64,000 nucleotides of DNA from Ignavibacteria bacterium (GTDB taxonomy: Bacteria; Bacteroidota; Ignavibacteria; Kapaibacteriales; UBA961): NCBI GenBank assembly GCA_016720145.1, contig JADJXV010000007.1:103426-167425 (forward strand). The letters run 5' to 3'. The number at the start of each line of letters is the position of its first letter. The first letter of the stretch is position 1. The translations under genes and the position numbers were made by a program. Shown one piece after another: positions 1,840 through 58,807 of the stretch. The notes below the pieces were generated by a model, which was not told the origin of the DNA, searched no databases, and saw only the letters and a list, made by a program, of their open reading frames with translations.

Positions 1840-4800
1840 TTACTTCACAAGTATCATTTGCTTTGCTGTCACAAGTGTACCTACTTCTAATCGATACATA
1901 TACATTTCACTTCCGAGGTTGGATGCATCATCTCTTGTGAATGTTGCAGTATGATTACCGGCGTCCTGCATTTCACTCACGAGTGTTGCCACTTCTCTAC
2001 CGAGCATTGTAAATACTTTGAGGGTAACGACATCCGGCTTATCAATAGAATACTGAATCGTCGTCGAAGTGCTGAATGGATTCGGATAATTATCCGAAAG
2101 AGAGGATTGATTGCCGGCAATCGGACTCATCACCCCAAGCGGACTAAATCGTAAATCAGTCGAAAGTACAGGAGTCAGCTGATATCCACACACCAAATTA
2201 GCAGTTGCCTGACCGAGAACTCCTTCGAACGTAGCGAGCTTACTGTAAAACGGCATACCACCCATGCGTGTGTTTGTGTTCTTACCAATACGAATGACAA
2301 CCGTATTTGTCTTGTCTGATATGTCAGTATTTTGATAAATTTTTGGAGTTTGGAATACAACATCGCTATCCGAATCAACGGTTAGATTATTGACTCTGAT
2401 CATGCAGCTTTCGTACTGTTCGCCTGTGAGTGCAACTTGTACTAATGAAAGTACTGCAGATGCAGGCAGAGGATTAGCTCTTGACAATCGGAGAAAACCT
2501 ACTAAGTCAGTTGTATTAATTACTTTAAGGAAGTCGTGTTCAGAAATGCGACCTTCGATTCGTACTTTATCACCCATTGCTATTTCAGCATTTTGGACAT
2601 TCGAGTGGAATTGACCTGACACTTGGAAGAGTGTGAGTCCGCCGGTAGCATCTTGAATTCGCGTATAATCACCCATTGTTCGAGTTACAACTCCTTCGAC
2701 AATAACGAGAGTACCAATTGGCAAATCGCGTGCTGCTCGTATGGTATTGACACCTATCGTATCGATGCCTGTTCCGGTTACGGTGATTATGCTATTGCCT
2801 ACATTATGGTCGAAGTCTATATTAGCACTTACTTTACCTTGGACTTGTGGGGCAAAAGTAATAAAAAACTCTTGTGAAGCATTCGGAACAATCGTTCCGA
2901 TGATTGGTGTAATTGAATAGAACGGAGAACTTGAAGCGATATCTGATATAATCAAATCACTCACACCGGTGTTGGTCACATAGACGCTGAGCTGTTTTGT
3001 AGTTTTTACCCGAACATTTCCGAAATCGAGGTTCGATCTATTCACCGTGAACTTCGGAGAAAGGTCACTTCCTGAACTATTACCCGCTAAATAGAGAGTA
3101 TCTCTTGGGTTAGTTGCATTATGATGAAATGCTATATAGCCATTCTGCACGCTCATTGACAGAGGAGAGAAGTTCACATAAAACTTACGAGATGTGCCTG
3201 CCTCGACCACACCTGTACCAAGATCTATCGTATAAAATTTATTACTTGACTTCGCGCTCAAGATGATAAGATTGGCAGTACCTGAATTAGTGACTACGAT
3301 GCTATCTTTCTTGGTCGTGCCACTGACGACACTACCAAATACGAGGCTGAGAGGGTTAACGGAAAATGATGCAAAGACTGGATTACCAATTCCGGTACCG
3401 GTCACGTGTATTGAGTCTTTGGTAGTAGTAGAATTGACATTAAAACGAATCCAACCGTCTTGAATTCCTGATACTAACGGTGTAAAGGTAACATTGAATA
3501 TCCTCGAAGCACCCGGAGCAATCGTTGCATTGAGTGCTGTAAGTGTAAACGTAGTATTCGTGGATACAAAGCTTGAAATAATCAAATCCGCAGTGCCTGA
3601 ATTAGTCACGGTAACTGTTTCTGTTTTGGTTGTTCCATTGACGACATCTCCAAAGTTTACTTCCATCGGAGTGACGGCAAATTTTGATGAAATGCCCGTT
3701 CCACTCACAGTGATAGTATCTTTCGGATTCGCAGCATTATGCGTAAATACAATACTACCTGTTAGCAAGCCATCGGCTAAAGGTGCATACGTGAAGTAAT
3801 ATTTCAGCGTACCGCCGGGAATAATTGTTGCATTCGTTGGGGTTACGGCAAAGACTACATTACTACTCGTCACACTTGTGATCAGTAAATTTGATGTTCC
3901 GGTATTCGAGATTATGACTGAATCCGTCTTTTGTATTCCTTTACGTACATTTCCGAAATTCACAGAACTTACATTCGCTAAAAACTTTGGTGCGAGTCCA
4001 TTTCCACTGACCGATACAGTATCTTTTGGCTTGATTGCATTATGATTGAATATCAACTTACCCGCTTGAGCGCCGTCGGTTAATGGCGAATAGAGGATGT
4101 AAAATTTCATCGACGCGCCCGGTGCAATTGTTCCCGTAGCAGGAGTTACCGCAAAATATGAATTCGAGCTGGTGATGCTTGTCACGACGAGATTCGCAGA
4201 GCCGGAATTTGAAACAGTCACCGAGTCTTTTTTATTCAATCCGCTCACGACACTTCCGAAATTAATAGTAGAAGGTGTGACTGTTGCAATCGGCGAATTC
4301 CCGTTTCCATTGACTGCAATAGTATCCCTTGGCTTGGCAGCATTATGCGAAAATATAATATTGGAGGTTTGATACCCATTGGACAGAGGCGAATAGGTGA
4401 TCATAAATTGTTTTGTGCCGCCGGGTGTAATTGTACCACTAGTAGTATTGACGGAAAACACTGAGTTTGAACTCGTTACATTCGTGATGACCAAGTCTGC
4501 ACCACCTGTATTAGTCACAATAACCGTATCAATTTTACTTGTAAAGTTCGCTACGTTGCCATAGGTAACTTGATAATGATTTGCAGAAAAAATTGGTGAA
4601 GCGGTAGAAGTTGCCCTGACGGTAGTAACGCCTGATGCCATCGTCACCGCAGCCGAAAAAGCAAGTGCACGCCCGTCCATTGAAGCGCCTGTACCAAATG
4701 ATATAGACTGATCAGCCAAAATTGTTCCCTTGAATACTGAATAAGTACCTAAGGTCGCTGATGTACCTACCTGCCAAAAAATATTGGATGCCTGTGCTCC

Positions 4801-5379
4801 ACCTGCGAGTATAATTTTAATACCGCTGCCGAGGTTGAGCGAACTCCCAATCTGAAATATCCAGACGTCCGTTGCATTGCCGGTGAGCGTCACATCTGCT
4901 CCGGTGATATTTGCTGCGCCGGTGAATTTGTAGAGTCCGGGTGCGAGATTTAAGCCACCAATATTGCTACCGCCGGGATTAAGAAATGCACCTGTTGGTA
5001 CGGGAGTTCTATTGGCTGCTTCGGTGTAAGCTGTTGTCAAATCACTCTTTGCTGTTTGTAATAATGTAGAATTTATCACCGAACCTGACGGACCGGAAGC
5101 ATCGACGACATACAAAGTGCCGACTACATTCGAACCGTCAAAACCTGTAATATAGCTCCCTGCAGCCGGGCTGAGACCCACATTTCCGGTGATTGTTACC
5201 GGTGGTACTCCTGTGACGGTCGAGCCGGCAAGGATCACAAAATTACTGAGAGAAAGTAGATTCAAAGGTGCTATTCCTGCCACCATCGTTGTCGTCATCA
5301 TCGCTGCGAGGAGTATCACTCCAAGCATCCGAGCGAATTTGTCATACATAGTGTTTATGTATTTATTAGAAATTTTCAT
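1840..5379 (-). CDS. Giant T9SS-secreted surface protein: signal peptide, ice-binding-like (DUF3494) beta-helix domain, about 7 choice-of-anchor-D/ASH-like Ig repeats, C-terminal T9SS sorting domain
   Basis: The N-terminal block (...LYVVDASGPSGS...TAYTEAANRTP...DVWIFQIGSSLNLGSGIKIILAGGAQASNIFWQVGTSATLG...MDGRALAFSAAVTM) matches DUF3494 ice-binding-like proteins. About 80-aa repeats with NFGNV..G..K.DSV.V.N.G...L.I..... are choice-of-anchor D-like. The C-terminus (...LKVFTMLGREVATLV...YMYRLEVGTLVTAKQMILVK) is a T9SS C-terminal domain. Confidence 0.85.
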   Translation of the reverse strand: MKISNKYINTMYDKFARMLGVILLAAMMTTTMVAGIAPLNLLSLSNFVILAGSTVTGVPPVTITGNVGLSPAAGSYITGFDGSNVVGTLYVVDASGPSGSVINSTLLQTAKSDLTTAYTEAANRTPVPTGAFLNPGGSNIGGLNLAPGLYKFTGAANITGADVTLTGNATDVWIFQIGSSLNLGSGIKIILAGGAQASNIFWQVGTSATLGTYSVFKGTILADQSISFGTGASMDGRALAFSAAVTMASGVTTVRATSTASPIFSANHYQVTYGNVANFTSKIDTVIVTNTGGADLVITNVTSSNSVFSVNTTSGTITPGGTKQFMITYSPLSNGYQTSNIIFSHNAAKPRDTIAVNGNGNSPIATVTPSTINFGSVVSGLNKKDSVTVSNSGSANLVVTSITSSNSYFAVTPATGTIAPGASMKFYILYSPLTDGAQAGKLIFNHNAIKPKDTVSVSGNGLAPKFLANVSSVNFGNVRKGIQKTDSVIISNTGTSNLLITSVTSSNVVFAVTPTNATIIPGGTLKYYFTYAPLADGLLTGSIVFTHNAANPKDTITVSGTGISSKFAVTPMEVNFGDVVNGTTKTETVTVTNSGTADLIISSFVSTNTTFTLTALNATIAPGASRIFNVTFTPLVSGIQDGWIRFNVNSTTTKDSIHVTGTGIGNPVFASFSVNPLSLVFGSVVSGTTKKDSIVVTNSGTANLIILSAKSSNKFYTIDLGTGVVEAGTSRKFYVNFSPLSMSVQNGYIAFHHNATNPRDTLYLAGNSSGSDLSPKFTVNRSNLDFGNVRVKTTKQLSVYVTNTGVSDLIISDIASSSPFYSITPIIGTIVPNASQEFFITFAPQVQGKVSANIDFDHNVGNSIITVTGTGIDTIGVNTIRAARDLPIGTLVIVEGVVTRTMGDYTRIQDATGGLTLFQVSGQFHSNVQNAEIAMGDKVRIEGRISEHDFLKVINTTDLVGFLRLSRANPLPASAVLSLVQVALTGEQYESCMIRVNNLTVDSDSDVVFQTPKIYQNTDISDKTNTVVIRIGKNTNTRMGGMPFYSKLATFEGVLGQATANLVCGYQLTPVLSTDLRFSPLGVMSPIAGNQSSLSDNYPNPFSTSTTIQYSIDKPDVVTLKVFTMLGREVATLVSEMQDAGNHTATFTRDDASNLGSEMYMYRLEVGTLVTAKQMILVK

Positions 5380-5407: not shown

Positions 5408-5432
5408 TACTGCTTTCTTTCTGAAAGTTCAG
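5408..5432 (-). promoter_or_regulatory. Conserved leader/promoter motif ACTGAACTTTCA-N9-AGCAGT (minus-strand sense), about 30-50 nt upstream of the start codon
   Basis: Read on the minus strand, the motif ACTGAACTTTCA-N-AAGA-N-AGCAGT occurs at the same distance upstream of three minus-strand genes. The copies are at 5408-5432, 11331-11355 and 28175-28199. The geometry GAAC-N16-GT resembles an ECF-sigma -35/-10 pair. Confidence 0.4.
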
Positions 5433-5460
5433 TTTATTCGAAGTCGGTGTAAATGAAGTC

Positions 5461-5540
5461 AGATTATGTTAACCGCAATGTTCGCAGAGATGAGATCTTC
5501 TGAGTACTGTCTTTGCGAACGTTGCGGTTAATGCATTTGT
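5461..5540. repeat. Long inverted repeat (about 22-bp arms, about 30-nt loop) between the tandem giant paralogues
   Basis: ttaaccgcaatgttcgcagag ... ctttgcgaacgttgcggttaa. Confidence 0.6.
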
Positions 5541-5567
5541 TGATTTATTCGAGTAGTAGATTAAAAA

Positions 5568-5655
5568 AGACTTACGGAACGGAATGTAATGTAAAGTGAA
5601 AACGCCGAAATTTTCATAATACTATCCACATCAGCCATTCCGTAAGTTTTTATTT
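5568..5655 (-). terminator. Putative rho-independent terminator of the 1879-aa gene (large-loop hairpin followed by a T-run on the minus strand)
   Basis: cttacggaacggaatg ... cattccgtaag. The stem sits immediately 3' of the stop at 5661, and the minus-strand reading is followed by tctttttt. Confidence 0.45.
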
Positions 5656-5660: not shown

Positions 5661-8600
5661 TTACTTCACGAGTATCATTTGTTTGGTTGAGGAATAGGAT
5701 CCCACGTCCAAACGGTAGTAATATACTTCGCTGCCGAGGAGAGGAGAGCTGCTGTTGGCTGTGAAAGTCACCGTATGCATTCCTGCATTTTGAAACTCAT
5801 TCACCAAGGTCGCCACTTCTTTGCCGAGCAACGTAAATACTTTGAGATTAACCATATCCGATGTGCCAATGCTATACTGTATCGTCGTCGAAGCATTGAA
5901 TGGATTCGGATAATTGCTAGAGAGCGAATAGTCGTTTCCGGTCTGTTGATTGAATATACCTGTTGGCGCAAAACGTAAGTCGGTCGGAAGGACCGGAGTC
6001 AATTGATAGCCGCATGTAATACAGCTACTTGACTGACTAAGGACACCTTCAAAGGTAACGGGAGTTTCGTATATGTTCATTCCGTCCAAGTACGTATCAG
6101 CAGTCACACCGATTCGAATGACCACAGTATTTGCCTTGTCGGAATTATCAGTCACCTGATATGTCTTTGACTCTTGGAACGTAAGGTCACCATCTGAAGT
6201 CATATTCATATTATCTATTTTGATCAAACAGCTTTCATACTGTTCACCACGGAGGGCGATATCAGCAAGTGTCACTTTGAATGGAGTAGGTAATGGATTC
6301 GTACGTGACAAGATTGAGTGACTTGTTAAATTACTACTCGTTATAATCTTCAGATTATCCATCTCGGTAATTTTACCTGCTACACGTAGTTTATCACCCA
6401 TACTTACTTCAGGAGCAAGAGCTTGCAAACCGAATTCACCTGTTTCATGGAAGAGAGTCAGTCCACCGGTCGCATCTTGAATTCTGGTATAGCTGCCTAA
6501 AGTTCGCGTTACAACTCCTTCTGTTATAAAACTCGTACCGATAGGCAAATCACGTGCTTCTTTAATAGTAATCACACGCATCGAATCGACACCGTTTCCG
6601 GTTACATTGAGGATGCTTGATCCACCGTTATGAACGAAGGTAATCGTTGATGTTACACGACCTACTACTGTCGGCGAGAAGGTCACAAAGTATTCCTGAG
6701 AAGCACCTTGAAGTATTGTTCCTGTAGCAGGAGTCACTGTATAATGACTATCACCCGACACAATACTCGTGATGACCAAGTCACCGGTACCGGTGTTTGA
6801 TATCATCACACTTAATTGCTTTGATGTAGTAATTACCACATTGCCGAAGTCAAGACTTTGTGAGGCAAATGTCAATTTCGGCGACACTCCTACACCTCTA
6901 AGCGATATAATCGCAGGAGAATTAAGTCCATTATGTGTAATGGACATATTACCAGTTTGCAAGCCATCGACTATCGGGGAGAATGTCACATTATACTGTT
7001 GACTCATACCCGATGAGAGGGTTGTTCCTGATGGAGTGAAGGTAAACACACCATTTGAACTCGTTATATTGCTTATAGTTAAATCACCCAAGCCCGTATT
7101 GGTAATAGTCACCGGCAGTACTTTAGTAGTGCCTGTGCGTACATTCCCAAAATCGAGATTTTGTGTACTGATTGAAATCGATGAAAGTACTCCAGTACCT
7201 GTCACTGCAATTACATCCGTTGCATTTGATGCATTGTGATTAAAGGTAATACTGCCGGTATGGAATCCGGTCGAAAGTGGAGCGAATGTGACGGAGAATG
7301 TTTGAGAAGAGCCCGGTGCGATTGTTCCAATTGCAGGGGAAATACTAAACTGTGCATTCGTACTCGACACGCCGTTGATCACGAGGTCTGACGTACCGGC
7401 ATTGGTCACTATGACGGTCATTACTTTGCTCACACCTACGCCAACATTACCAAAATCAAGACGTTGCGTATTAGCTACAAACATTGGCGATACACCTGTG
7501 CCTGTCACAGCAATCATGTCGATTGCGTTCGTTGCGTTATGATTAAAGATAATCATACCCGATTGCGATCCGTTCGCCACGGGAGAGAACGTGACAAAGA
7601 ATTGCTGAGTTGCTCCCGGAGCAATTGTCCCTGAATTCGGTGAAACACTAAATACACCATTATTACTCGACACACCACTGATGATCAGATTATCTGTACC
7701 GGTATTGGTCACTGTAATCGAACGTACACTCGATGTAAAATTTCTCACATTGCCGAAGTCGAGAGATTGTACATTCGAGCTGAACTGAGGGGAAATTCCA
7801 GTACCAATCACTATAATCGTATCTAATGGCTTCGCACCATCGTGCGTAAAGATAATAGTACCTGTTCTCAGGCCATCAGCTTGCGGCGAGAAGGAAAGGT
7901 AGAATTTCTGTGAAGCACCCGGAGCAATGATTCCTAAAGTAGGTGTAGCTGTAAATACTACATTCGAACTCGTTACACCGCTTATAATTAGATTCGTTGT
8001 GCCGGTGTTGGTAATTGTCACAGAGTCCATTTTGCTTGTGCCTGTACGGACATTTCCAAAGTTCACTATAAGAGCGCTTGCAGAGAACATCGGCGATACA
8101 CCAACTCCTGTGAGTGTGACTGTATCTTTTGGCTTCGCTGCGTCATGATTAAACACTAATAAACTATTCTGCATACCATCTGTTAACGGCGAGAAAGTCA
8201 CATAGAATTTCATCGAAGCGCCCGGAGCGATTGTACTTGTAGCAGATGGAGTGACTGTATATCGTGGATTCGTACTCGTGACACTGCTAATAACTAGACT
8301 TGTTGTACCGCTATTGGTCACAGTGACGGAGTCCATTTTGGTTGTGCCATTTCTGACATTTCCAAAATTCAAACTCTGTGGATTCACGGTAAATAATGGA
8401 GATACTCCCGTACCTGACACTGTAATCGTGTCTTTAGTTTTGTCAGCATCTCCTGTAAAGATTATCAATCCTGACTGAGCGCCATCAACCAAAGGCGAGA
8501 ACGAAAGGTAGAATTTCTGTGAGGCACCGGGCGCAAGTGAGCCGGTAGTAGGAGTGACTGCGAAACGACCGTTCGTACTTGTTACATTACTTATAGTTAG

Positions 8601-11300
8601 AGTAGAAGTACCAGTGTTGGTAATTACCACTGAGTCCTGCTTGGTTGTACCATTGCGGACATTTCCGAAGCTCACACTTTGTACACTTTTCGCAAGTACC
8701 GGTGATACACCCGTTCCTGTGACACTAATCGTATCTCGAGGAATAAGCGCGTTGTGATTAAAGATAATTAGTCCTGTTTTCACACCATCGGTAAGTGGAG
8801 CAAATGTCACATAGAATTTTTGTGACATACCTTGGGTAATTGTTCCTGTAGCAGGAGTTACCATAAATAGTCCATTCGTACTTGTGATACTGCTTATTAC
8901 CAGATCCGAGGTTCCGGTATTCGATACCGTGACCGAATCCATTTTCGTCGTTCCATTGCGTACATTCCCGAAATTCAAATTCACGACATTTGCAGTAAAT
9001 TTTGGTGATACACCTGTACCACTGAGAGAAATTGAGTCTTTTGGATTGAGTGCATTATGATTGAAATAGACAAATCCCGACTGCGAGCCATCTGCAATTG
9101 GAGCGAATGTCACATAATACTTCTGTGATCCACCGGGGGTAATTGTTCCCGTAGTCGGTGTCACAGTATAGCGTGCATTCGATGTCGTCACACTGCTGAT
9201 GATGAGGTCAGATGTACCTGTATTGGTAATCGTAACCGAGTCGAGCTTGGTCGTACCATTTCTCACATTGCCGAAATTCAGACCTGCAAGGCCTGCACTG
9301 AAGAGAGGCGACACACCAGAACCTGATACAGAATAGATACTTGAAGGGATTTTTGCATTATGGTTAAATGTAAACGTACCTACTTGAAATCCATCGACCA
9401 ACGGTGCGAACGTGATATAATACTTCTGAGATGATCCCGGAGTAAGTGTTCCCGAAGTCGGTGTAATTGTAAATCGTGTATTCGAACCTGTAACGCTTGT
9501 AATCACCAAATTGGATGTTCCGGTATTGGTCACCGTGATAGAATCCATCTTGGTAGTCAGATTACGAACATTGCCGAAATCAAGTGAGACGGGAGCTGCC
9601 GTGAAGAACGGAGAAACTCCTGAGCCACTTACCATGATTGTATCTTTTGGCTTAGCGGCATTATGATTAAACACCACCGTCGCTGTTTGCGCGCCATCGA
9701 CTAAAGGAGCGAATATAAAGTAATACTTGAGTGTAGCACCCGGAGCAATTGTGCCTGTGGTCGGCGTGACCGTAAAGAGCATATTCGAGCTAACGACACT
9801 TGTAATTCTGAGCGTGTCTGTACCGGTATTCGTCACGGTTACGGAGTCTCTTTTCGTACTATCATTGCGTACATTACCGAAATTCAAAGTAGTTGGCACA
9901 GCAGAGAAGAATGGAGAAACACCTGTTCCCGACACATTAATCGTATCTTTTGGCTTGGCAGCATTGTGACTGAAAATGATTCTTCCTGATTGAGCACCAT
10001 CGGCAAGCGGAGCGTAGGTGATATAAAATTTCCTCGTTCCGTTAGGTGTAAGAGTGTCGGTAGTAGGAGTGACGGTATATCGTGCATTTGTGCTCGTCAC
10101 GCTTGTGATCATAAGATTCGCCGTGCCGGTATTGGTCACGGTAATCGAGTCAAGCTTCGTCTGATTATTCCGTACATTCCCAAAATTGATCGTATAAGTA
10201 TTGGATGAAAATATGGGAGAAACTCCTGTACCGGTAGCAACTACCGTATCCCGAGGTTTGGATGCATTATGGACAAAAATTATATTGGCATTTTGATTGC
10301 CGTTTCCTGTAGGTGTATAAGTAATATAGAATTGTTTAACTGAGTCAGGCATAATAGTCGCCGATGTCGATGACACGGTGAACTGTGTGTTTGAGCTTGT
10401 AACATTGGTAATCACTAGATTAGCACCACCGGTGTTTTTCACACGAATAGTGTCAATTTTGCTCGTAAAGTTAGCGACATTGCCAAAAGTCGCTGTTAAT
10501 GAATCAGCCGAAAACACAGGGAATAGAAATGCACGTGTTGAAACCACAGCAGACCCCATCGTAACAGCTGCTGAAAATGCCAACAATCTACCATCGATTG
10601 CCGCACCGGTACCGAGTGAAATTGACTGGTCTGCAAGGATACTTCCCTTGAAGACAGAATATGTACCAAGTGTAGCAGATGTACCGACTTGCCAGAATAT
10701 ATTTGCTGCCTGAGCGCCACCGGCAAGGATGATTTTGATACCGCTGCCCATGTTGAGCGAACTCCCAATCTGAAATATCCACACATCGGTTGCATTGCCG
10801 GTGAGTGTGAGGTCTGCGCCGGTAATATCTGCCGCGCCGGTGAATTTATAGAGTCCGGCAGCGAGATTCATGCCACCCATGTTGCCTGCGCCCGGATTGA
10901 GAAATGTGCCTGTCGGCACCGGTGTTCGATTCGCTGCATCGTTATAAGCAGTTGTCAAATCACCCTTTGCGGTCGTTAATAGACCCGCGTCAATCGTTGA
11001 GCCGGAAGGTCCTGAAGCATCAACTACATATAAAATTCCATCCACATTTGACCCGTCGAAACCTATCACAAAGCTACCGGCAGCAGGACTGAGTCCGATA
11101 TTACCGGTTATGGATACAGGTGGAATACCTGTAATCGTCGAACCTGCGATGATCATAAAATTGTCAAGAGAAAGGAGATTGAGAGGCGGAATTCCGGCAA
11201 ATGATGGCGTTGCTGCCATCATGATTGCTACAGAAAGCACACTCAATAAGCGAATGTACCGAGAGTACATACTCGCGACGAGTACGTTAAAAATTTTCAT
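5661..11300 (-). CDS. Giant T9SS-secreted surface protein, paralogue of 1840..5379: DUF3494 ice-binding-like domain, about 15 choice-of-anchor-D/ASH-like repeats, T9SS C-terminal domain
   Basis: The N-terminal 250 aa and C-terminal about 330 aa are nearly collinear with the downstream paralogue. The central NFGNVRNGTTK...VT.TNTGTS.L.I repeats are expanded (about 15 versus 7). It ends with the T9SS C-terminal domain (...VYYYRLDVGSYSSTKQMILVK). Confidence 0.85.
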   Translation of the reverse strand: MKIFNVLVASMYSRYIRLLSVLSVAIMMAATPSFAGIPPLNLLSLDNFMIIAGSTITGIPPVSITGNIGLSPAAGSFVIGFDGSNVDGILYVVDASGPSGSTIDAGLLTTAKGDLTTAYNDAANRTPVPTGTFLNPGAGNMGGMNLAAGLYKFTGAADITGADLTLTGNATDVWIFQIGSSLNMGSGIKIILAGGAQAANIFWQVGTSATLGTYSVFKGSILADQSISLGTGAAIDGRLLAFSAAVTMGSAVVSTRAFLFPVFSADSLTATFGNVANFTSKIDTIRVKNTGGANLVITNVTSSNTQFTVSSTSATIMPDSVKQFYITYTPTGNGNQNANIIFVHNASKPRDTVVATGTGVSPIFSSNTYTINFGNVRNNQTKLDSITVTNTGTANLMITSVTSTNARYTVTPTTDTLTPNGTRKFYITYAPLADGAQSGRIIFSHNAAKPKDTINVSGTGVSPFFSAVPTTLNFGNVRNDSTKRDSVTVTNTGTDTLRITSVVSSNMLFTVTPTTGTIAPGATLKYYFIFAPLVDGAQTATVVFNHNAAKPKDTIMVSGSGVSPFFTAAPVSLDFGNVRNLTTKMDSITVTNTGTSNLVITSVTGSNTRFTITPTSGTLTPGSSQKYYITFAPLVDGFQVGTFTFNHNAKIPSSIYSVSGSGVSPLFSAGLAGLNFGNVRNGTTKLDSVTITNTGTSDLIISSVTTSNARYTVTPTTGTITPGGSQKYYVTFAPIADGSQSGFVYFNHNALNPKDSISLSGTGVSPKFTANVVNLNFGNVRNGTTKMDSVTVSNTGTSDLVISSITSTNGLFMVTPATGTITQGMSQKFYVTFAPLTDGVKTGLIIFNHNALIPRDTISVTGTGVSPVLAKSVQSVSFGNVRNGTTKQDSVVITNTGTSTLTISNVTSTNGRFAVTPTTGSLAPGASQKFYLSFSPLVDGAQSGLIIFTGDADKTKDTITVSGTGVSPLFTVNPQSLNFGNVRNGTTKMDSVTVTNSGTTSLVISSVTSTNPRYTVTPSATSTIAPGASMKFYVTFSPLTDGMQNSLLVFNHDAAKPKDTVTLTGVGVSPMFSASALIVNFGNVRTGTSKMDSVTITNTGTTNLIISGVTSSNVVFTATPTLGIIAPGASQKFYLSFSPQADGLRTGTIIFTHDGAKPLDTIIVIGTGISPQFSSNVQSLDFGNVRNFTSSVRSITVTNTGTDNLIISGVSSNNGVFSVSPNSGTIAPGATQQFFVTFSPVANGSQSGMIIFNHNATNAIDMIAVTGTGVSPMFVANTQRLDFGNVGVGVSKVMTVIVTNAGTSDLVINGVSSTNAQFSISPAIGTIAPGSSQTFSVTFAPLSTGFHTGSITFNHNASNATDVIAVTGTGVLSSISISTQNLDFGNVRTGTTKVLPVTITNTGLGDLTISNITSSNGVFTFTPSGTTLSSGMSQQYNVTFSPIVDGLQTGNMSITHNGLNSPAIISLRGVGVSPKLTFASQSLDFGNVVITTSKQLSVMISNTGTGDLVITSIVSGDSHYTVTPATGTILQGASQEYFVTFSPTVVGRVTSTITFVHNGGSSILNVTGNGVDSMRVITIKEARDLPIGTSFITEGVVTRTLGSYTRIQDATGGLTLFHETGEFGLQALAPEVSMGDKLRVAGKITEMDNLKIITSSNLTSHSILSRTNPLPTPFKVTLADIALRGEQYESCLIKIDNMNMTSDGDLTFQESKTYQVTDNSDKANTVVIRIGVTADTYLDGMNIYETPVTFEGVLSQSSSCITCGYQLTPVLPTDLRFAPTGIFNQQTGNDYSLSSNYPNPFNASTTIQYSIGTSDMVNLKVFTLLGKEVATLVNEFQNAGMHTVTFTANSSSPLLGSEVYYYRLDVGSYSSTKQMILVK

Positions 11301-11330
11301 AGTAATTACCTGAAAGGATGATCGAATTCA

Positions 11331-11355
11331 AACTGCTCTCTTGATGAAAGTTCAG
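11331..11355 (-). promoter_or_regulatory. Second copy of the ACTGAACTTTCA...AGCAGT leader motif
   Basis: actgctctcttgatgaaagttcagt lies 31-55 nt upstream of the ATG at 11300. Confidence 0.4.
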
Positions 11356-11516
11356 TTTTTGAGGTCGGATGAGGATATGGAATGAACCATTATTGAGGAT
11401 GTGCGCTATCTTTGAGTTATGCAAAGAGTTACACTTGAGTTTGAAGGGAGTAGCCGTTCGTTTGACAGGGGCTGTTTTACTCTGTATCCCTTTGTTTGTG
11501 CTGTTTTTCTATAGCA

Positions 11517-11591
11517 CAAAATTAAGGCAAGAGTGTCCCGAGTATGTTACGTAACCTTAGGTATTACTTACATGATTCACATGTGAGTTGT
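11517..11591 (-). promoter_or_regulatory. Candidate promoter: TAATTTTG -7 box plus a conserved upstream 50-nt motif (TGTGAATCATGTAAG.AATAC...TTACGTAACATAC), shared with the OmpA gene upstream region
   Basis: The minus-strand TAATTTTG at 11517-11524 matches the Bacteroidetes -7 consensus TAnnTTTG. Exactly 17 nt upstream lies a motif nearly identical to 28408-28447, which shows the same spacing to its own TAATTTTG at 28383-28390. Confidence 0.45.
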
Positions 11592-12125
11592 CTTCGTGGG
11601 GGCACTTGGTGAATGGCACGCTGATGACGCTGATTTTTATGATTGAAGAAAATGGATATAGTGGTGTATCGCTTGTGTGAGGTGTAGAATTTTGAGCCGG
11701 CGAATTGCATTCAATGATGTCAACTCAAGAATTCGGCATTTGCTTGATGCGTAGAGGCAAGCGCAGCATGACAAACTGTTTACCTCACCCTGAGTTATCA
11801 AGTGGCTGCAGCCTGCCCCTATCAAAAAGCAATGACACAGACTATAATACGAACCCTAAGAACCCACACCCTCCCCTCTCCCAAGAGAGGGAACTAGTCA
11901 GAAAATCAATTACTTACAAACCAAAGTCCCCTCTCGGGAGGGGATTTAGGGGTGGGTTAAGCGCTGGATAAGATAAACAACCTTCTTCCAAAAGAAACCT
12001 ATGTAATAATTGTGTCATTAACAGGGAGTCGTAGGGTTCAATTACATACCTATTTTTTCCTTAAGCTGACAGCATTGGAATTGCATTCGCCCTTACAGTA
12101 TGTCTATGATTATAGCCGCAAGTCT

Positions 12126-12557
12126 TTACATCCGTTCCATATACCAATTTAGTTCCTTTTCCATTTTCTTGTAGCGGAAGATGCTGGTAATGATTTTTTG
12201 CAAGCGAACGAATGCTGTCTCACTTTTGACTACATAGTCAAATGCTCGATGATGCATGCAATTTATTGCTACGTCAATTTTATCTTGAGATGACAGCATA
12301 ATCACCGGAATATCAGGATTATATGCTTTAATCTTGTCTAAGGTTTCTATACCGTTCATAGCGAATTTGTCTATACCATCGAGATGGTAATCGAGGATAA
12401 TCACATCCGGAGATCGTGACAAATTCTCCATGCACTTCTCACCGGTCGGATAGGTCTCAATGACAAAATCAGCATGCTCAAGAAATTCGATTTCTAGTAA
12501 TTTTAAGAATACTGCATCATCATCGACAAGGAATATTTTAATCTTTTCTGTGTTCAT
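12126..12557 (-). CDS. Single-domain response regulator (CheY-like receiver)
   Basis: IKIFLVDDDAVFLKLLEIEF...DVIILDYHLDG...IPVIMLSSQDKIDVAINCMHHRAFDYVVK. It overlaps the upstream kinase gene by 4 nt (ATGA). Confidence 0.85.
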   Translation of the reverse strand: MNTEKIKIFLVDDDAVFLKLLEIEFLEHADFVIETYPTGEKCMENLSRSPDVIILDYHLDGIDKFAMNGIETLDKIKAYNPDIPVIMLSSQDKIDVAINCMHHRAFDYVVKSETAFVRLQKIITSIFRYKKMEKELNWYMERM

Positions 12558-15256
12558 CGTTTCGTGTTTTTTATAGTGTTAAATTCCTCTTCCAATTCTC
12601 TACATGCTTGATCGCAAATGAGTTCTAGCTGTAGAACCAATTCATGAATCCCTTCTGTTTGCCGTTGAGTGCTGGCATATTCTTGTATTTTCTTTGCCAT
12701 ATTTTCGAAGTCCTCACTAATCCCCATAATCGCAAAAGACGGTATCATTTTGTGTACAGCCGAGTAAAGTGTATTCCAGTCTTTATCCTGAAAGCTCTGC
12801 TTCATCGAGATAATCAGCGTTGGCGTCTGCTCTAAATACAGCGAAATCATTTCCATCATGAGTGTTGGATTGGACTTGGTACGATTGAGGAGATACGCTA
12901 GGTCAATACACCGCTGTTTTTTCGTTTCGACAAACAACTTTTCTTTTACTTCAATGAGCGACATTGGTTTTTTGACTAACCCAATGATTTTACTATATAA
13001 TATTCGTTCATCGACCGGCTTTGCTATATAATCGTTCATCCCGACTGCCTTACATTTTGCCAGATCGACCGTTGTCACATCTGCAGTGAGTGCAATAATC
13101 GGGATCTTGGAATTCATCGTGTTGCGAATATACTGCGTCGCTTCAAAACCATTCATTTCAGGCATTTGCAAGTCCATGAGAATAATGTCGTAGGTTTTGG
13201 AATGGAGCTTTTCAATCGCAATTTTCCCGTTGGCTGCTATGTCTCGTTCAAATCCAAAATCGTCTAGCAATGTCTTCATCAGTAATTGATTGAGAGCGAT
13301 ATCTTCTACCACAAGTACCTTTATATTCTTGATATCGTCATCAAGACTGAGTACTATTTCTTCAAGCTCTGCCTGCTCTATTGTCTTTTGAAAGGTGAGA
13401 GTAAAGCTAAAAGTAGAACCCTCTCCGAGCTTGCTTTTGACCCGGATACTGCCGCCCTGCGACTCGACTAATTGCTTGACAATTGCGAGTCCGAGACCGG
13501 TTCCGCCATACAACCGAGAAGTGCCGCTCGATGCCTGCTGAAAATTCTCAAAAATCTTGGTAATCTTGTCCTTCGGAATACCGATGCCGGTATCTTTGAC
13601 CGCAAATTCTACGGTGACATTTTCATCAGTTTCACTTATTAATTTAACACTTATGGTGATTTTACCGGTGTTGGAAAATTTCACAGCATTGCTCACAAGG
13701 TTCAGGATAATCTGATGTAATCGCACCGGATCACCTAAAAGGAATTCCGGAATAGTATTGTCGTAAACAATTTCCTGATCTAAGTTTTTTTCCTGAATTT
13801 TTGTTTCGAAAAGATGTACCATCGCCGAAAGCGACGCTTCCATTTTAAAAGGAATTTTCTCAAATGTCATCTTGCCGGCATCTACTTTCGCTAGATCGAG
13901 AATATCATTAATAAGCACTATTAGCGAGTCACCACTCATTTTAATAGCAGTCAAGTATTCTTTTTGTTTGGCACTGAGGTCGGTCTTGAGCAACACCTTG
14001 GTAAATCCTATAATTGCATTCATTGGTGTACGAATTTCGTGGCTCATATTCGAGAGGAATTGCTGCTTTGCTTTTACTGCTTCCTCGGCTTTGATCTTGG
14101 CTTCCTCGGCGAGCATCGTCGCAAGCTCAGCAAATACTTTTGCTTCAATGAGTTCCTTCTCGTTCCTTTTCTGGTCGGTAATATCACGAGCGACAATCAC
14201 CGCACCAAGCACATTCCCGCGGTCATCTTTATAGACCGAACCGTTAAAGAGTACATCGGTGAGCTCTCCATCGATAATCGTAAGAGGGTAATCAGCGACA
14301 AATCCCTTAGCAAAGACTTCTTTATATACTTCTGATGCTCTGTCTGAATCCGTAAAATAATCCTTAAAATCACTATTGCGCAGCTTTTCCCGCGATACAC
14401 CGGTTACTTTGACCATTGCCTCATTCATATCGGTGATTTTCCCATCGGTGCTGATAGTGACAAGAGGATCGCGACTTGCTTCTATCAAGCTTAGAGAGTA
14501 TTGTGAAAGAAGTTTTTTGGCAGTAATGTCCGAACGGATCGACACAAATTGATAGACTTCACCTTGTTCATTCTTGAATGGTACAATCGTAGAGTCCACC
14601 CAATAGTTGGTACCATCTTTTGCTTTGTTTTTAATTTCACCTCGCCAAATTTTTCCGGTGCAAATAGTATCCCATAATTCCCGCATAAACTCTTTAGGAT
14701 GAAATCCAGAATTGACTAACCTATGATCTTGCCCTATTAACTCTTCCCTTTTGTACTTTGAAATTTTACAAAAATTGTCATTTGCGTAGTTAATAATTCC
14801 ATTTTTATCAGTGATAGCTACTATCGACGACTCCTCAAGTGCTAGTTTATACCCGGAAATTTCATTCAAACTCTTCTCGAGATTCGCTTCTACCTTTTTT
14901 TGTTTTGTCACGTCTCGCGCTGCTGCAAATACACCGAGAACTTTGCCGTTGTCATCTTTATAAACTGATGCATTATAAAGCACATCCGTTAATTGACCGT
15001 TGACATGCCTCACCGTCAGCGGATAGTCGGCCACGAAGCCCTTCTCAAATACTTGTCGATATCCTATCTCCGCTTTCTCGGGTTCGGTAAAATACATGCT
15101 GAAGTTCGTCCCGATAAGCTTATCCCGACGAATACCGGTAACTTTAATCGACGCCTCATTGACGTCGGTGATTTTCCCTTCGGCACTGATCGTCACGAGT
15201 GGGTCCAAGCTCGCCTCTATCAGACTACGAGAATATTGTGAAGCTAATTGAACCAA
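12554..15256 (-). CDS. Hybrid sensor histidine kinase: 3 PAS/PAC, HisKA, HATPase_c, receiver and HPt domains
   Basis: Three PAS/PAC units (e.g. ...FVADYPLTVRHVNGQLTDVLYNASVYKDDNGKVLGVFAAARDVT) are followed by SNMSHEIRTPMNAIIGF (H-box). The ATPase region carries DTGIGIP...GGTGLGLAIVKQLV (G-boxes), then a REC domain (VLVVEDIALNQLL...ILMDLQMPEMNGFE) and a C-terminal HPt-like segment. The ORF-track start (TTG at 15256) is probably not the true start. See the next feature. Confidence 0.9.
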   Translation of the reverse strand: MVQLASQYSRSLIEASLDPLVTISAEGKITDVNEASIKVTGIRRDKLIGTNFSMYFTEPEKAEIGYRQVFEKGFVADYPLTVRHVNGQLTDVLYNASVYKDDNGKVLGVFAAARDVTKQKKVEANLEKSLNEISGYKLALEESSIVAITDKNGIINYANDNFCKISKYKREELIGQDHRLVNSGFHPKEFMRELWDTICTGKIWRGEIKNKAKDGTNYWVDSTIVPFKNEQGEVYQFVSIRSDITAKKLLSQYSLSLIEASRDPLVTISTDGKITDMNEAMVKVTGVSREKLRNSDFKDYFTDSDRASEVYKEVFAKGFVADYPLTIIDGELTDVLFNGSVYKDDRGNVLGAVIVARDITDQKRNEKELIEAKVFAELATMLAEEAKIKAEEAVKAKQQFLSNMSHEIRTPMNAIIGFTKVLLKTDLSAKQKEYLTAIKMSGDSLIVLINDILDLAKVDAGKMTFEKIPFKMEASLSAMVHLFETKIQEKNLDQEIVYDNTIPEFLLGDPVRLHQIILNLVSNAVKFSNTGKITISVKLISETDENVTVEFAVKDTGIGIPKDKITKIFENFQQASSGTSRLYGGTGLGLAIVKQLVESQGGSIRVKSKLGEGSTFSFTLTFQKTIEQAELEEIVLSLDDDIKNIKVLVVEDIALNQLLMKTLLDDFGFERDIAANGKIAIEKLHSKTYDIILMDLQMPEMNGFEATQYIRNTMNSKIPIIALTADVTTVDLAKCKAVGMNDYIAKPVDERILYSKIIGLVKKPMSLIEVKEKLFVETKKQRCIDLAYLLNRTKSNPTLMMEMISLYLEQTPTLIISMKQSFQDKDWNTLYSAVHKMIPSFAIMGISEDFENMAKKIQEYASTQRQTEGIHELVLQLELICDQACRELEEEFNTIKNTKR

Positions 15257-16008
15257 ATTATTAGACGCTTCTAATTCCTGCCGGACAGATTCGCGGATCT
15301 CGGTTTGTTTGTTTTGATAGTCAAGTTCGCGGTCGGCGATGACAAGCTCTGCGGCGCGCTTGTCTTTCTCTTCATTTTGGAAGGCAAGTTCTTTATTTGC
15401 AACGAGTAATTTAGCTGTGAGCTTCCCTTTTTCTTCATCCTGATACGCGAGCTCGATATTAGCAAGACCCAGCTCAGCGGCGCGCTTGCCTTTCTCTTCA
15501 TTTTGGAAGGCAAGTTCTTTATTAGCTACGACTAACTCAGCAGCACGCTTGCTTTTTTCTTCGTCTTGATACGCAAGCTCAATATTAGCAAGTCCCAGCT
15601 CAGCAGCGCGTTTGCCTTTTTCCTCGTCTTGATAGGCGAGTTCGATATTCGCAAGACCAAGCTCGGCGGCGCGCTTGCCTTTTTCCTCGTCCTGAAAAGC
15701 CAGCTCAATATTTGCGAGCCCAAGTTCAGCAGCTCGTTTGCCTTTTCCTCATCCTGAAACGCGAGTTCGATATTGGCTATACCAAGCTCCGTGGCTCTTT
15801 TTTCTTTTTCTCCATCCTGAAACTCAAGCTCTTTGTTGGCTATTCCGAGTTCGGCAGCACGCTTCCGCCGCTCAATGTTTTGAGTGTCAATTTCCTTGCG
15901 AACGCTAGCCAATTCTGCAATCAGTGTTTGATTTTCAGCTATTTGAATATCAAGTTCACTTTGAAGGCGGACTATATCATCGACAGATGGGTTAGTTTGG
16001 TATGCCAT
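15257..16008 (-). CDS. N-terminal extension of the hybrid kinase: coiled-coil plus about 10 tandem 21-aa repeats (ELGIANIELAYQDEEKGKRAA), separated from the kinase frame by a 1-nt homopolymer indel near 15745
   Basis: The ATG at 16008 opens MAYQTNPSVDDIVRLQSELDIQIAENQTLIAELASVRKEIDTQNIERRKRAAELGIANKELEFQ... Restoring one base in the T4 run at 15744-15747 (T5 in the other repeat copies) puts the reading in the kinase frame. That frame has no stop from about 15745 to 15256 and reads ...EEKGKRAAELGLANIELAYQDEEK...LVANKELAFQNEEKDKRAAELVIADRELDYQNKQTEIRESVRQELEASNNLVQLASQYS..., which continues into the kinase. It also contains no ATG, GTG or TTG before 15256. The DNA has a 63-bp tandem periodicity. 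Confidence 0.6.
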
Positions 16009-16045: not shown

Positions 16046-16633
16046 TTAAGAAGCTATCATCTGTTCAGTCGTCTCATCCGATGTACCTTTTCCCCCGACA
16101 TCTTCGAGCGGACTCCGACGTTTGTCTTTGAGCTGCTTGAAGTGGGAGGGAGACAGTCCGGTCACTTTTTTGAATTGATTCGACAGATGTGCCACGCTAC
16201 TATAGTTCATTTTCCAGGCGATTTCCGAAATACTGAGCTCGCCGTACATAATTAATTCCTTGATTCGCTCGACTTTATGAGCGATGACGAAATGTTCGAT
16301 CGTCGTACCTTGTACCTCGGAGAAGAGATTAGCGAGGTAGGTATAGTCGTGATTGAGCTTTTCATGTAATAATTGTGAAAAATTCACTTTGACTAATTCC
16401 TCGGTATGATGCACCATTTCAATGATCACATTCTTGATTTTTTCGATGAGAATGGACTTTTTATCGTCCATAAGTTCTAATCCTGACTCAAGCAGGGCTG
16501 CTTTCAATGTTTCGGATTGACTTGCTGTAAGGGTTTCCATCACCTCGACTTCACCTAATTCCACAACGATAAAATGGAGCCCGAGTTTTCTCAGCTCTTC
16601 TTTCACCAGAATTTTACATCGGTTACTGACCAT
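16046..16633 (-). CDS. AraC-family transcriptional regulator (HTH_18 C-terminal domain)
   Basis: Twin HTH motifs: ...YTYLANLFSEVQGTTIEHFVIAHKVERIKELIMYGELSISEIAWKMNYSSVAHLSNQFKKVTGLSPSHFK. The likely start is the ATG at 16633 (MVSNRCKILVKEELRKLGLHFIVVELGEVEV). The ORF-track ORF extends to 16723. Confidence 0.75.
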   Translation of the reverse strand: MVSNRCKILVKEELRKLGLHFIVVELGEVEVMETLTASQSETLKAALLESGLELMDDKKSILIEKIKNVIIEMVHHTEELVKVNFSQLLHEKLNHDYTYLANLFSEVQGTTIEHFVIAHKVERIKELIMYGELSISEIAWKMNYSSVAHLSNQFKKVTGLSPSHFKQLKDKRRSPLEDVGGKGTSDETTEQMIAS

Positions 16634-19619: not shown

Positions 19620-19756
19620 CTACAAACAGGACGCCCTGATGGGGCTACAAACATGATGCCTAGACAATTGCTACAAACAGGACGCCCCGATGGGGCTACA
19701 AATATGATGCCTAGACAATTGCTACAAACAGGACGCCCCGATGGGGCTACAAAAGC
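19620..19756. repeat. 51-bp tandem repeat x2.7, each unit containing a GC hairpin (gccccgatggggc)
   Basis: The unit ctacaaacaggacgccc[ct]gatggggctacaaa[ct]atgatgcctagacaattg repeats at 19620, 19671 and 19722. Confidence 0.85.
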
Positions 19757-19780
19757 TAAGTGCATCTTACGATTTTCAGA

Positions 19781-19889
19781 CTTTCGACTTTCGACTTTCG
19801 ACTTACTACTTACTACTTACTACTTTCGACTTACTACTTACACTTACTACTTACTACTTACTACTTACTACTTAAACACTTACTACTAA
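19781..19889. repeat. Composite heptamer microsatellite (TTTCGAC)n(TTACTAC)n immediately 3' of the porin stop codon
   Basis: ctttcgactttcgactttcgacttactacttactacttactactttcgacttactacttacacttactac(ttactac)4... A second copy of the same composite element lies at 25365-25460. Confidence 0.85.
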
Positions 19890-25364: not shown

Positions 25365-25460
25365 GACTTATTTACGACTTACTGCCTGATACTTGTACTT
25401 ACTTCTTAACGACTTACAATCTTTCGACTTACTACTTACTACTTACTACTTATTCCTTAC
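25365..25460. repeat. Second copy of the composite TTTCGAC/(TTACTAC)n microsatellite element, abutting the stop codon of 25457..26050
   Basis: ...ctttcgacttactacttactacttactacttattccttacttcc. Confidence 0.8.
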
Positions 25461-26050
25461 TTCCCCAGTCCGATTTGATTCATATATGCTTGATTGTCCC
25501 AGAAGAGATGTTCCTCTATGATCACACCATTTTTCCACATTGCTACTGTACACATTGGGATGGAGAATAATTTTCCGGTCGATTGGATCATTGTGCCTTT
25601 GCCGGTCGGCATTGGAGAGGAGAAGGTACCGCTCATGATACCTGTGACGCAGGTCATATTGCCCGAGCCGAATCTTACAGGGTGTAGCTGAATATTCGTA
25701 TTGGGCGCATAGACAAACATTTGCTTCAAGTCTGCTATATGTCTGTCAATTCCAACTGTTGAATGTCCGTCCGGCCAATTTACTTTCACATCTTTCGAAT
25801 GACTTTCGTGCAGACGAGCCCAATCTTGATTGCTAAAGACAGTAAAGTCTAATGTATCGAAGGTTGCGAGATTCTTGGCAATCTGTTGGTTGCCGGAAGT
25901 GAGATTGGTGATTTGATTGCGCAGGGAGTCAACTGATGCTTGTGAGTAGGTTTGTACGTCTTTATCATCCGAACAGCTTACAAGTGACATGACGCAACAC
26001 GTAAGAATCACAAGAGATAATAAATTTTTCAGGCGGTCTGTGTTTTTCAT
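25457..26050 (-). CDS. Lipoprotein with SnoaL-like/ester-cyclase fold
   Basis: Signal and lipobox (LVSCSDDK). The C-terminal ...GVIIEEHLFWDNQAYMNQIGL resembles predicted ester cyclases (SnoaL-like). Confidence 0.45.
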   Translation of the reverse strand: MKNTDRLKNLLSLVILTCCVMSLVSCSDDKDVQTYSQASVDSLRNQITNLTSGNQQIAKNLATFDTLDFTVFSNQDWARLHESHSKDVKVNWPDGHSTVGIDRHIADLKQMFVYAPNTNIQLHPVRFGSGNMTCVTGIMSGTFSSPMPTGKGTMIQSTGKLFSIPMCTVAMWKNGVIIEEHLFWDNQAYMNQIGLGK

Positions 26051-28174: not shown

Positions 28175-28199
28175 ACTGCTTTCTTGTTGAAAGTTCAGT
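28175..28199 (-). promoter_or_regulatory. Third copy of the ACTGAACTTTCA...AGCAGT leader motif (upstream of ompA-family gene)
   Basis: actgctttcttgttgaaagttcagt lies 31-55 nt upstream of the ATG at 28144. Confidence 0.4.
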
Positions 28200-28382: not shown

Positions 28383-28447
28383 CAAAATTACGGAGAAGGG
28401 TGAGCGGGTATGTTACATAACAGCAAGTATTGCTTACATGATTCACA
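28383..28447 (-). promoter_or_regulatory. Candidate promoter (TAATTTTG -7 box plus the conserved 50-nt upstream motif) for the OmpA-family gene
   Basis: ccgTAATTTTGcacc lies on the minus strand. It is followed 17 nt upstream by gtatgttacataacagcaagtattgcttacatgattcaca, which is nearly identical to 11542-11583. Confidence 0.45.
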
Positions 28448-32042: not shown

Positions 32043-32762
32043 ATTGGGTACGCAAGTGTGCCTAAATGCAGTAGTGCAGGTGATTATTTAACACAAAGCC
32101 ACAATGGTAAGCCACAAAGTTCACAATAAGATAGGTGTATTTGTAGTGTTCTTTGTGGAATAACTTTGTGCCTTAGTGTTAAAAACTGATTTTCAATACA
32201 GAGAAGTTGAGGCGTTAAGATATCTTTGCTGATTTTGAGTAAAATGCTAAATAACAAGTAGATACATCAATCTTGCAAACGCTTCATCTGAAAGTATTTA
32301 CAATTAGTTGTACTCTAACATACACCTCAATCTGGGAATTGAGTGCAGCCTAAATGCAGTAGTGCAGGTGATTAATTAACACAAAGGCACAATGGTAAGC
32401 CACAAAGTTCACAATAAGATAGGTGTATTAGTAGTGTGCTTTGTGGAATAACTTTGAGTCTTTGTGTTAAAAACTGATTTTCAATACAGAGAAGTTGAGG
32501 CGTTAAGATATCTTTGCTGATTTTGAGTAAAATGCTAAATAACAAGTAGAGACATCAATCTTGCAAACGCTTCATCTGAAAGTATTTACAATTAGTTGTA
32601 CTCTAACATACACCTCAATCTGGGAATTGAGTGCAGCCTATATGCAGTAGTGCAGGTGATTATTTAACACAAAGCCACAAAGGTAAGCCACAAAGTTCAC
32701 AATAAGATAGGTGTATTAGTAGTGTGCTTTGTGGAATAACTTTGAGTCTTTGTGTTAAAAAA
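32043..32762. repeat. 288-bp tandem repeat x2.5, non-coding; each unit contains an imperfect hairpin of about 100 nt (ttaacacaaag...ctttgtgttaa with inner ccacaaag...ctttgtgg) followed by a T-rich tract
   Basis: Unit starts at 32061, 32349 and 32637, with an exact 288-bp period and a few substitutions between copies. No ORF of 60 aa or more on either strand. Confidence 0.9.
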
Positions 32763-34908: not shown

Positions 34909-34912
34909 TGTT

Positions 34913-46332: not shown

Positions 46333-46399
46333 TTCTTGTGGGTATATTTGGTCGAGTAGAGAGCTAACCCACAGTCTTTAGATTCCACCGTAGTTCCGT

Positions 46400-51871: not shown

Positions 51872-51960
51872 CAAAAACTGAAATTACCGTAAGTTATCAT
51901 TGCAAGATATCATTGTAAGTTATCATTGCAAGTTAGCGTTGTAAGTTATCATTGGATAAA
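51872..51960 (+). promoter_or_regulatory. Conserved upstream element AAACTGAAATTACCGTAAGTTATCATTG followed by five tandem 13-14-bp repeats (GTTATCATTG[CT]AA)
   Basis: ggcaaaaactgaaattaccgtaagttatcattgcaa-gatatcattgtaa-gttatcattgcaa-gttagcgttgtaa-gttatcattgg. A single-copy homologue (gggcagaaactgaaattactgtaagttaccattg) lies at 63775-63808, upstream of the next paralogue. Confidence 0.4.
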
Positions 51961-58775: not shown

Positions 58776-58807
58776 TCTATCTTTTTTACTATTACAGAGT
58801 GTGTGCT

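Follow-up and report, generated by a model that had tools for sequence, protein, structure and literature searches.

Genes and shared upstream blocks in the window

On its minus strand, the window (the whole stretch of DNA that was analyzed, 64,000 nucleotides in length) carries the gene of a giant adhesin of 1879 aa (5661-11300), which combines an Ice_binding domain with 13 HYDIN/ASH/DUF1573 Ig-like repeats, and the gene of a 657-aa protein with an OMP beta-barrel and an OmpA domain (26171-28144). A second adhesin gene on the same strand (1840-5379) encodes a paralogous ice-binding-like/Ig protein of 1179 aa with a weak Pfam match to a T9SS sorting tail (Por_Secre_tail, 22.2 bits, below the cut-off of 27). 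Located between the giant adhesin and the OmpA gene, and again on the minus strand, are the genes of an AraC-family (HTH_18) protein of 195 aa (16046-16633), whose true start may lie about seven codons upstream, a hybrid PAS histidine kinase with N-terminal 21-aa ELAFQxEEKxKRAAEL repeats (12554-16008), and a REC-only response regulator of 143 aa (12126-12557).

Upstream of both the adhesin and the OmpA gene we found a common promoter-like block, TGTGAATCATGTAAGyAATAC...GTTAyGTAACATAC-N17-TAATTTTG, at 11581-11517 and 28447-28383 of the minus strand, respectively. This block is hereafter called module A, and a hairpin motif in the leaders of the same genes module B, or hairpin B. The 21-mer TGTGAATCATGTAAGyAATAC (11581-11561 and 28427-28447, read on the minus strand) had no match in 100 shuffles of the window, and the part GTAACATAC-N17-TAATTTTG occupies 11550-11517 and 28416-28383, with a spacing of 17 nt in both. 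The 40-nt upstream blocks of the two sites differ at six of 40 positions. In the adhesin copy the distal box is TGTGAATCATGTAAGT (11581-11566), the proximal box GGTTACGTAACA (11556-11545) and the -7 box TAATTTTG (11524-11517); the corresponding boxes of the OmpA copy are situated at 28447-28432, 28422-28411 and 28390-28383.

A looser scan added three sites on the minus strand, giving exactly five in the window. One of these (31909-31845) precedes a pair of small ORFs, 31808-31620 (62 aa) and 31572-31180 (130 aa), the latter belonging to a family beginning MKTxxQLGIWMDH that is also found downstream of module A in other loci; the site itself has an orthologue at L001 4862. Another (18939-18875) lies about 45 nt ahead of a CsbD-like gene (ATG near 18829, stop at 18644), and the last (18073-18009) about 75 nt ahead of a CsbD gene (17933-17748), which is followed by the gene of a 136-aa membrane protein and then, farther on and on the same strand, by the trio of AraC-like, kinase and REC-only genes. 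Just upstream of the site starting at 31909, three tandem 288-nt copies, 94-97% identical and each with a 57-aa ORF, fill 32060-32761.

When scored with a weight matrix trained solely on instances from other genomes, the five window sites reached 44-53 bits (adhesin 48.3, OmpA 53.3, small ORFs 47.9, CsbD-like gene 44.2, CsbD gene 53.4), as compared to 2.6 for the next best position in the window and 1.8 bits for the top score over 30 shuffled windows. The tandem-repeat half of the matrix, used alone, recovered the same five sites. The sequence-only reading had described a shared upstream block with a -7 box at the adhesin and OmpA loci, at an identical spacing of 17 nt; both copies are indeed present with that spacing, and what had been missed was their orientation on the minus strand together with the three further sites.

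In L001, module A is almost unchanged upstream of an 84%-identical OmpA orthologue, and the sequence 5' of it has diverged. The OmpA orthologues of L005 and L006 (61-63% identity) have neither module A nor module B upstream, which indicates that the regulon membership of individual genes turns over.

Distribution and consensus of module A

By employing a tripartite pattern with 20 specified bases, fixed from the window's own sites, at least 119 exact matches were found in species-representative genomes, with about one expected by chance. Bacteroidales, Chitinophagales, Flavobacteriales, Sphingobacteriia, Saprospirales, Ignavibacteria and Kapaibacteria are represented among the matches listed, and both this taxonomic spread and the gene-family counts given below are to be read as samples. 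Judged from sequence, module A is thus conserved across Bacteroidota and Ignavibacteria.

The consensus of 124 instances is AAnGTGTGAATnATGTAACT-N9-AaTTaTGTAACA-N20-TAnnTTTG, and the sites in the window and in the loci L001 and L003 follow the rigid geometry TGkGAAT-N23-TGTAAC-N21-TAnTTTTG. Several positions left unspecified in the search pattern turned out to be conserved as well, namely A-2 (115/124), T10 (121/124), A13 (122/124), A14 (121/124) and T28 (108/124); the spacers and flanks are unconserved across instances, i.e. the motif positions alone are kept. Furthermore, the module contains a direct repeat with a period of 21 bp, as seen from a self-match of 0.55 at offset 21 against a background of about 0.27. 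AATnATGTAAC at positions 5-15 recurs at positions 26-36, so that a distal unit, TGTGAATnATGTAAC, and a proximal unit, AaTTaTGTAAC, are offset by 21 bp or two helical turns, and each repeat unit contains two TGTrAa sub-boxes situated 9 bp apart.

Promoter architecture and predicted start sites

The Bacteroidetes sigma-A promoter consists of a -33 TTTG and a -7 TAnnTTTG element (Bayley 2000, Vingadassalom 2005, Chen 2007; genome-wide PMC7366714, PMC9723704). The -7 boxes of all five window sites read TA(A/G/T)TTTTG and thereby agree with TAnnTTTG, and in the relatives the box is either TAnnTTTG or CAyCTTTG, with TTTG kept in all. In L142-L147, from Bacteroidia-type genomes, it is mostly CAyCTTTG rather than TAnnTTTG, which would represent a weaker -7 box of the kind expected for activator-dependent promoters. 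An ATG-initiated ORF in the right orientation was found downstream of module A in 116 of the 124 instances (median distance 59 nt, 5th percentile 22 nt), and these distances place module A upstream of transcripts and not within them. Module A thus shares with the Bacteroidetes sigma-A promoter both the sequence of the -7 box and the range of distances to start codons. It differs in the lack of a -33 TTTG: 17-23 nt upstream of the -7 box the positions read ACAy, and the region is filled by TGTAACA, part of a repeat that reaches to about -70. Canonical TTTG-N19-TAnnTTTG promoters are also found in the window, e.g. upstream of 50206-51501, and a scan of 11200-12200 with the E. coli sigma-70 consensus gave no promoter of the E. 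coli type.

In Flavobacterium psychrophilum, genome-wide mapping of transcription start sites placed the -7 box at -12 to -5 (PMC9723704). With the boxes of module A positioned in the same way, transcription is predicted to start near 11512 and 28378, and the leaders would be about 212 nt (adhesin) and about 234 nt (OmpA). The proximal TGTAAC, 21 nt upstream of the -7 box, would then fall at about -39 to -34, i.e. the proximal half-site overlaps the -35/-33 region. Together with the tandem direct-repeat half-sites and their 21-bp period, this is the arrangement of an AraC-type class II site.

These results sustain three claims that had been made from the letters alone. The assignment of the terminal box to the Bacteroidetes -7 consensus fits an element that ends in TAnnTTTG and is followed by a correctly oriented gene, and the proposal of a regulator site upstream of it agrees with the near-invariance, across the phylum, of bases that the search had not specified and with a 21-bp direct repeat lying over the -33 position. 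Leaders of 210-250 nt had also been put forward, and the lengths predicted from the geometry of the -7 box lie within this range for both genes, the two leaders each containing the ACTGAACTTTC hairpin. Altogether, it is very likely that module A exists as a conserved promoter with a regulon.

A leader hairpin downstream of some module A sites

The leader motif ACTGAACTTTCAnCAAGAnAGCAGTTT is found ahead of each of the two start codons, at 11356-11330 and 28199-28173 of the minus strand. The hairpin B that it would form (11332-11356) has, in the adhesin leader, the stem ACUG/AA bulge/CUUUC and GAGAG/CAGU with the loop AUCAA, and ends 31 nt before the ATG; in the OmpA leader (28175-28199) it has the loop AACAA and ends 30 nt before the ATG. 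A looser third copy with the loop AGAAA is found at 5409-5433, likewise on the minus strand, upstream of the second adhesin gene, which has hairpin B only. The sequence-only reading had suggested that the promoter block and the leader motif occur together. This is so for the adhesin and OmpA genes and in the related contigs L001, L128, L132 and L134, where the module A core lies 190-215 nt upstream of hairpin B, but not for the copy at 5433-5409, which has no module A before it and marks the hairpin as an independent element. Between the two adhesin genes, upstream of this third copy, two inverted repeats were noted at 5469-5531 and 5563-5654, with 22-nt arms (91% complementary) and 20-nt arms (85%), respectively, which may be terminator or attenuator structures.

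All copies of module B have the same predicted fold, i.e. ACUG, AA bulge, CUUUC, 5-nt loop, GAAAG and CAGU, the stability of which is unremarkable. A metagenome scan returned 16 stretches, three of them evident chance matches inside coding sequence. Wherever enough downstream sequence was available, the match was situated 26-39 nt upstream of the ATG of a gene of the ice-binding-like or OmpA family. Among 15 members the loops vary and the stems are invariant save for an A/G exchange (U-A to U-G) that keeps the pairing. The OmpA leaders of three relatives share further blocks, with no usable covariation. No divergent members of hairpin B were found in a covariance-model search of about 0.8 Mb from other lineages, and a known RNA family was rejected for both modules, given that Rfam yielded no match to module A or B in 5300-32100 at the gathering score or at E<=1. 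An upstream ORF ending at the TGA in ACTGAAC was also considered and rejected; it is plausible in L136, but in that frame an ATG-initiated ORF is lacking from most leaders.

Judged by its distribution, hairpin B is a leader element of its own, restricted to one clade. Its asymmetric AA bulge speaks somewhat more for a hairpin acting as RNA than for a DNA site, and its role could lie in mRNA stability, protein binding or a DNA operator. The E. coli ompA mRNA also carries 5'-UTR stem-loops, and the two cases share a small conserved hairpin in a long leader of an abundant outer-membrane protein mRNA, although hairpin B is found about 30 nt before the ATG and not at the 5' end.

Genes downstream of module A

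The ORFs of the fetched loci were clustered and their families assigned with Pfam, and the resulting numbers are raw counts set against no formal background. On this basis, OmpA lipoproteins with a glycine zipper were found downstream of module A in 22 loci, an MlaE-MlaF-MlaD operon in about 21 and CsbD in 13. Other recurrent targets are YtxH, YceI, ferritin, ice-binding-like and YXWGXW-repeat proteins, and further target families include Usp, BON, S30AE and Band_7. Single instances precede ORFs that we take, by eye and from their N-terminal sequences, to be catalase-like and Old Yellow Enzyme-type (OYE) flavin reductase-like. By family assignment, these are the genes of a general stress and envelope response. 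The window neighborhood, for which synteny with L001 suggests ferritin, DUF2383, SnoaL, bestrophin and DUF1003 genes, fits this content.

Ice-binding-like (DUF3494-type) surface proteins recur as module A targets in eight loci (L054, L060, L078, L120, L127, L128, L132 and L136), some of them from the Ignavibacteria clade and others from distant Bacteroidales, which suggests that this family has a conserved tie to the stress regulon. In the stress-gene island of the window, heptamer-like arrays (CTTACTA/CTTTCGA) were also seen in two intergenic gaps, at 19755-19876 and 25409-25461.

A candidate regulator linked to module A

AraC-family, hybrid PAS kinase and REC-only families recur near module A sites, and in the window they form the trio at 16633-12126. 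This trio is conserved in L088, L122 and all six of the loci L142-L147. The end of the AraC-like gene coincides with the 5' edge of a module A, or lies a few bases from it at most, in L067, L092, L108 and L136.

The linkage was also examined in reverse, with the six loci L142-L147 (116 kb) picked via the AraC-like protein alone; as these come from related genomes, they are non-independent trials. They contained 30 module A sites scoring 16-59 bits, as compared to -2 for the best of 60 shuffled loci, and each of the 30 had a correctly oriented ORF downstream, the median distance being 45 nt. The trio itself was present in six of six, amid Usp, BON, ferritin, CsbD, YtxH, Band_7, PPK2 and S30AE genes. 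Five of the sites end 23-47 nt before the start codon of the AraC-like gene, a position that implies autoregulation, if the sequence is read as a promoter. Such a site precedes the AraC-like gene in five of the six loci, in contrast to the window's own AraC-like gene, which has no module A upstream. In L143 and L145, REC-only genes (137-164 aa) are themselves module A targets.

The AraC-like protein is at least 76% identical among the best 120 homologues listed, proteins from Bacteroidia MAGs included. It is also 74-88% identical to 23 aligned homologues, with Bacteroidia and Bacteroidota MAGs among them, and its C-terminal KxRSP motif is invariant; transcription factors are not usually conserved to this degree. 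Its structure, predicted by AlphaFold with a modest pLDDT of 64, consists of a small alpha/beta N-terminal domain, a long helix and an AraC domain with two HTH units. The protein fits the boxes of module A, in that two HTH units match two TGTrAa sub-boxes 9 bp apart. No sigma-factor gene (Sigma70_r2/r4) was found among the annotated window genes or in the six loci of the reverse test. Considering the sequence evidence as a whole, it is moderately likely that the AraC-like protein is the regulator of module A, and the linkage could also be compatible with a conserved factor encoded elsewhere. The kinase gene of the window has a single frameshift at 15343-15828, inside a 63-nt (21-aa) tandem-repeat array; it may reflect a misassembly of the repeats, but also a true disruption or a phase switch.

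Proposed mechanism and alternatives

We consider it probable that module A is a sigma-A-type, activator-dependent promoter of a stress and envelope regulon, with the AraC-like protein as the most likely activator. The usual -33 TTTG would here be replaced by the promoter-proximal copy of the tandem direct repeat, and a dimeric or tandemly bound activator, occupying about -70 to -34, would recruit RNA polymerase by class II activation. The candidate for this role is the 195-aa AraC-family protein encoded at 16633-16046, the activity of which would presumably be controlled by the products of the two adjoining genes, the hybrid PAS histidine kinase and the REC-only protein, these being the putative entry point of the signal. 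In the source genome, the regulon would comprise the two CsbD genes, the small-ORF pair, the OmpA-like protein and the giant ice-binding-like adhesin.

Similar arrangements are known from AraC at araI1-I2 (E. coli pBAD) and from the class II promoters of MarA, SoxS and Rob, in which the proximal half-site overlaps the -35 element. Module A shares with these the direct-repeat half-sites of about 17 bp with a 21-bp period, the proximal one being placed over the -35 region, the division of each half-site into two sub-boxes one helical turn apart that match two HTH units, and a regulator gene adjoining a target promoter. It differs in the sequence of the boxes, in its Bacteroidetes-type promoter geometry and in the small, unrelated N-terminal domain of the regulator, and, as opposed to AraC, the candidate regulator seems to take its input from a hybrid kinase and a REC-only protein and not from a sugar ligand.

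The main rival explanation is that module A is recognized by an alternative sigma factor, of the ECF type or a sigma-A paralogue, with TGTAAC as the -35 and (CG)TAnTTTTG as the -10 element, and with the distal TGTGAAT/ATGTAAC as an auxiliary or second site. GTAAC does resemble the AAC-containing -35 element of ECF promoters, and the five window sites together with those of L001 and L003 mostly have CGTA at the -10 position, where CGTAnTTTTG has an ECF-type appearance. However, the CG before the TA is weak across the phylum (C in 52 and G in 48 of 124 instances), being conserved in Ignavibacteria sites only, what is conserved in the box is TTTG, as in sigma-A promoters, and the spacing from AAC to CGT is 19 nt as compared to 16-17 nt for ECF promoters. 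General stress regulons elsewhere are driven by sigma factors (sigma-B, sigma-S and EcfG), and B. thetaiotaomicron has stress promoters attributed to ECF sigmas (PMC7366714, PMC12596196). Against this, neither the annotated window genes nor the six AraC-centered islands contain a gene for a sigma or anti-sigma factor, the apparently autoregulated gene is AraC-like and not part of a sigma/anti-sigma pair, and a second full repeat unit, 21 bp upstream, would be left unexplained. The non-canonical promoter PM2 of B. thetaiotaomicron, as described in print, is linked to stress and stationary-phase genes and has near-palindromic -30/-10 elements with TGTT at -10 (PMC7366714), and it has been attributed to the ECF sigmas SigW-1/SigH-1 (PMC12596196). 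Judged by that description, a tie to stress and stationary-phase genes within the Bacteroidota is common to PM2 and module A, but module A is a direct repeat with a canonical -7 box, and an identity of the two was rejected on account of the TGTT and the near-palindrome. Taken together, this makes an alternative sigma factor unlikely.

That the tandem boxes bind some other regulator, e.g. of the CRP/FNR type, or form the operator of a repressor, is in our estimation quite improbable. AAnGTGTGAA resembles the CRP half-site AAATGTGA and the distal box contains TGTGA, but module A is a direct repeat and not a palindrome; the CRP-type palindrome TGTGA-N6-TCACA was rejected, as nearly all instances have TAAC(T/A) where TCACA would be expected and the proximal unit is without a TGTGA half, and the six islands contain no cNMP-binding or Crp-type gene. 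The linkage to the AraC gene is correlative, and the islands also contain clusters of several REC-only proteins. Within the conserved trio, only the AraC-like protein binds DNA by type. The absence of a -33 element is typical of activator-dependent and not of repressed promoters, so that we infer activation from it. As for a local duplication, a dispersed repeat or a mobile element with no regulatory role, the two copies noticed first are closer to each other in positions 16-27 than to the consensus, and the adhesin and OmpA leaders both carry hairpin B. The sequence-only reading had itself named a duplication confined to these two loci as the outcome that would speak against it, and had asked for a scan with the motif; the scan gave five sites in the window and at least 119 elsewhere, and a local duplication was rejected on these grounds. 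Moreover, the motif positions alone are conserved, strand and distance to the downstream genes are strict, and there are no terminal repeats and no association with transposases, which leaves this explanation with hardly any probability at all.

Comparison with known general stress responses

Returning to the activator-dependent promoter that we favor, the gene content of its regulon overlaps strongly with those of sigma-B in Firmicutes, sigma-S in Gammaproteobacteria and EcfG-NepR-PhyR in Alphaproteobacteria, as indicated by CsbD, Dps/ferritin, Usp, BON/OsmY-like, YtxH, hibernation factor and catalase. Similar to the PhyR system, the input seems to run through histidine kinases and a receiver domain. 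The three established systems use a dedicated sigma factor, whereas the evidence on module A points to an activator working with the housekeeping sigma. Tentatively, and with somewhat more doubt than confidence, we suggest that module A, the AraC-like protein, the PAS kinase and the REC-only protein might constitute the master switch of a general stress response of Bacteroidota/Ignavibacteria. If so, a two-component-controlled AraC-type activator acting with the housekeeping sigma would add another paradigm to those of sigma-B, sigma-S and EcfG/PhyR, with conserved outputs that include a Mla-type lipid transporter and large ice-binding-like surface proteins. The literature searchable without subscription held no account of the motif, of the kinase repeat or of a general stress regulator in Bacteroidota.

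Bacteroidota dominate gut, soil and aquatic communities, and the 65-bp promoter signature can be scanned for in any genome as a read-out of the regulon. It comes with a single highly conserved candidate regulator and a sensor kinase to test, as well as with defined targets, i.e. CsbD, ferritin, Usp, BON, YtxH, hibernation factor, MlaEFD, OmpA lipoproteins and ice-binding-like surface proteins. Module A also offers an example of a Bacteroidetes-type promoter with no -33 element, it would place the giant adhesin and the OmpA-like protein of the source MAG in a stress regulon, and it could serve as an inducible promoter part in Bacteroidota genetics.

Other features of the window

A group II intron is found on the minus strand at 46351-48299, as indicated by Rfam matches to group-II-D1D4-6 and Intron_gpII, with ORFs at 46516-47859 between the matches. 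Tandem repeats of 119 and 60 nt occupy 34557-34958, at the 3' end of a 1321-aa ORF (34913-38878). Lastly, two paralogous giant ORFs of 1674 and 1690 aa (51952-56976 and 58673-63745), segments of which are 81-88% identical, flank a DDE_Tnp_1 transposase gene at 58074-58775.
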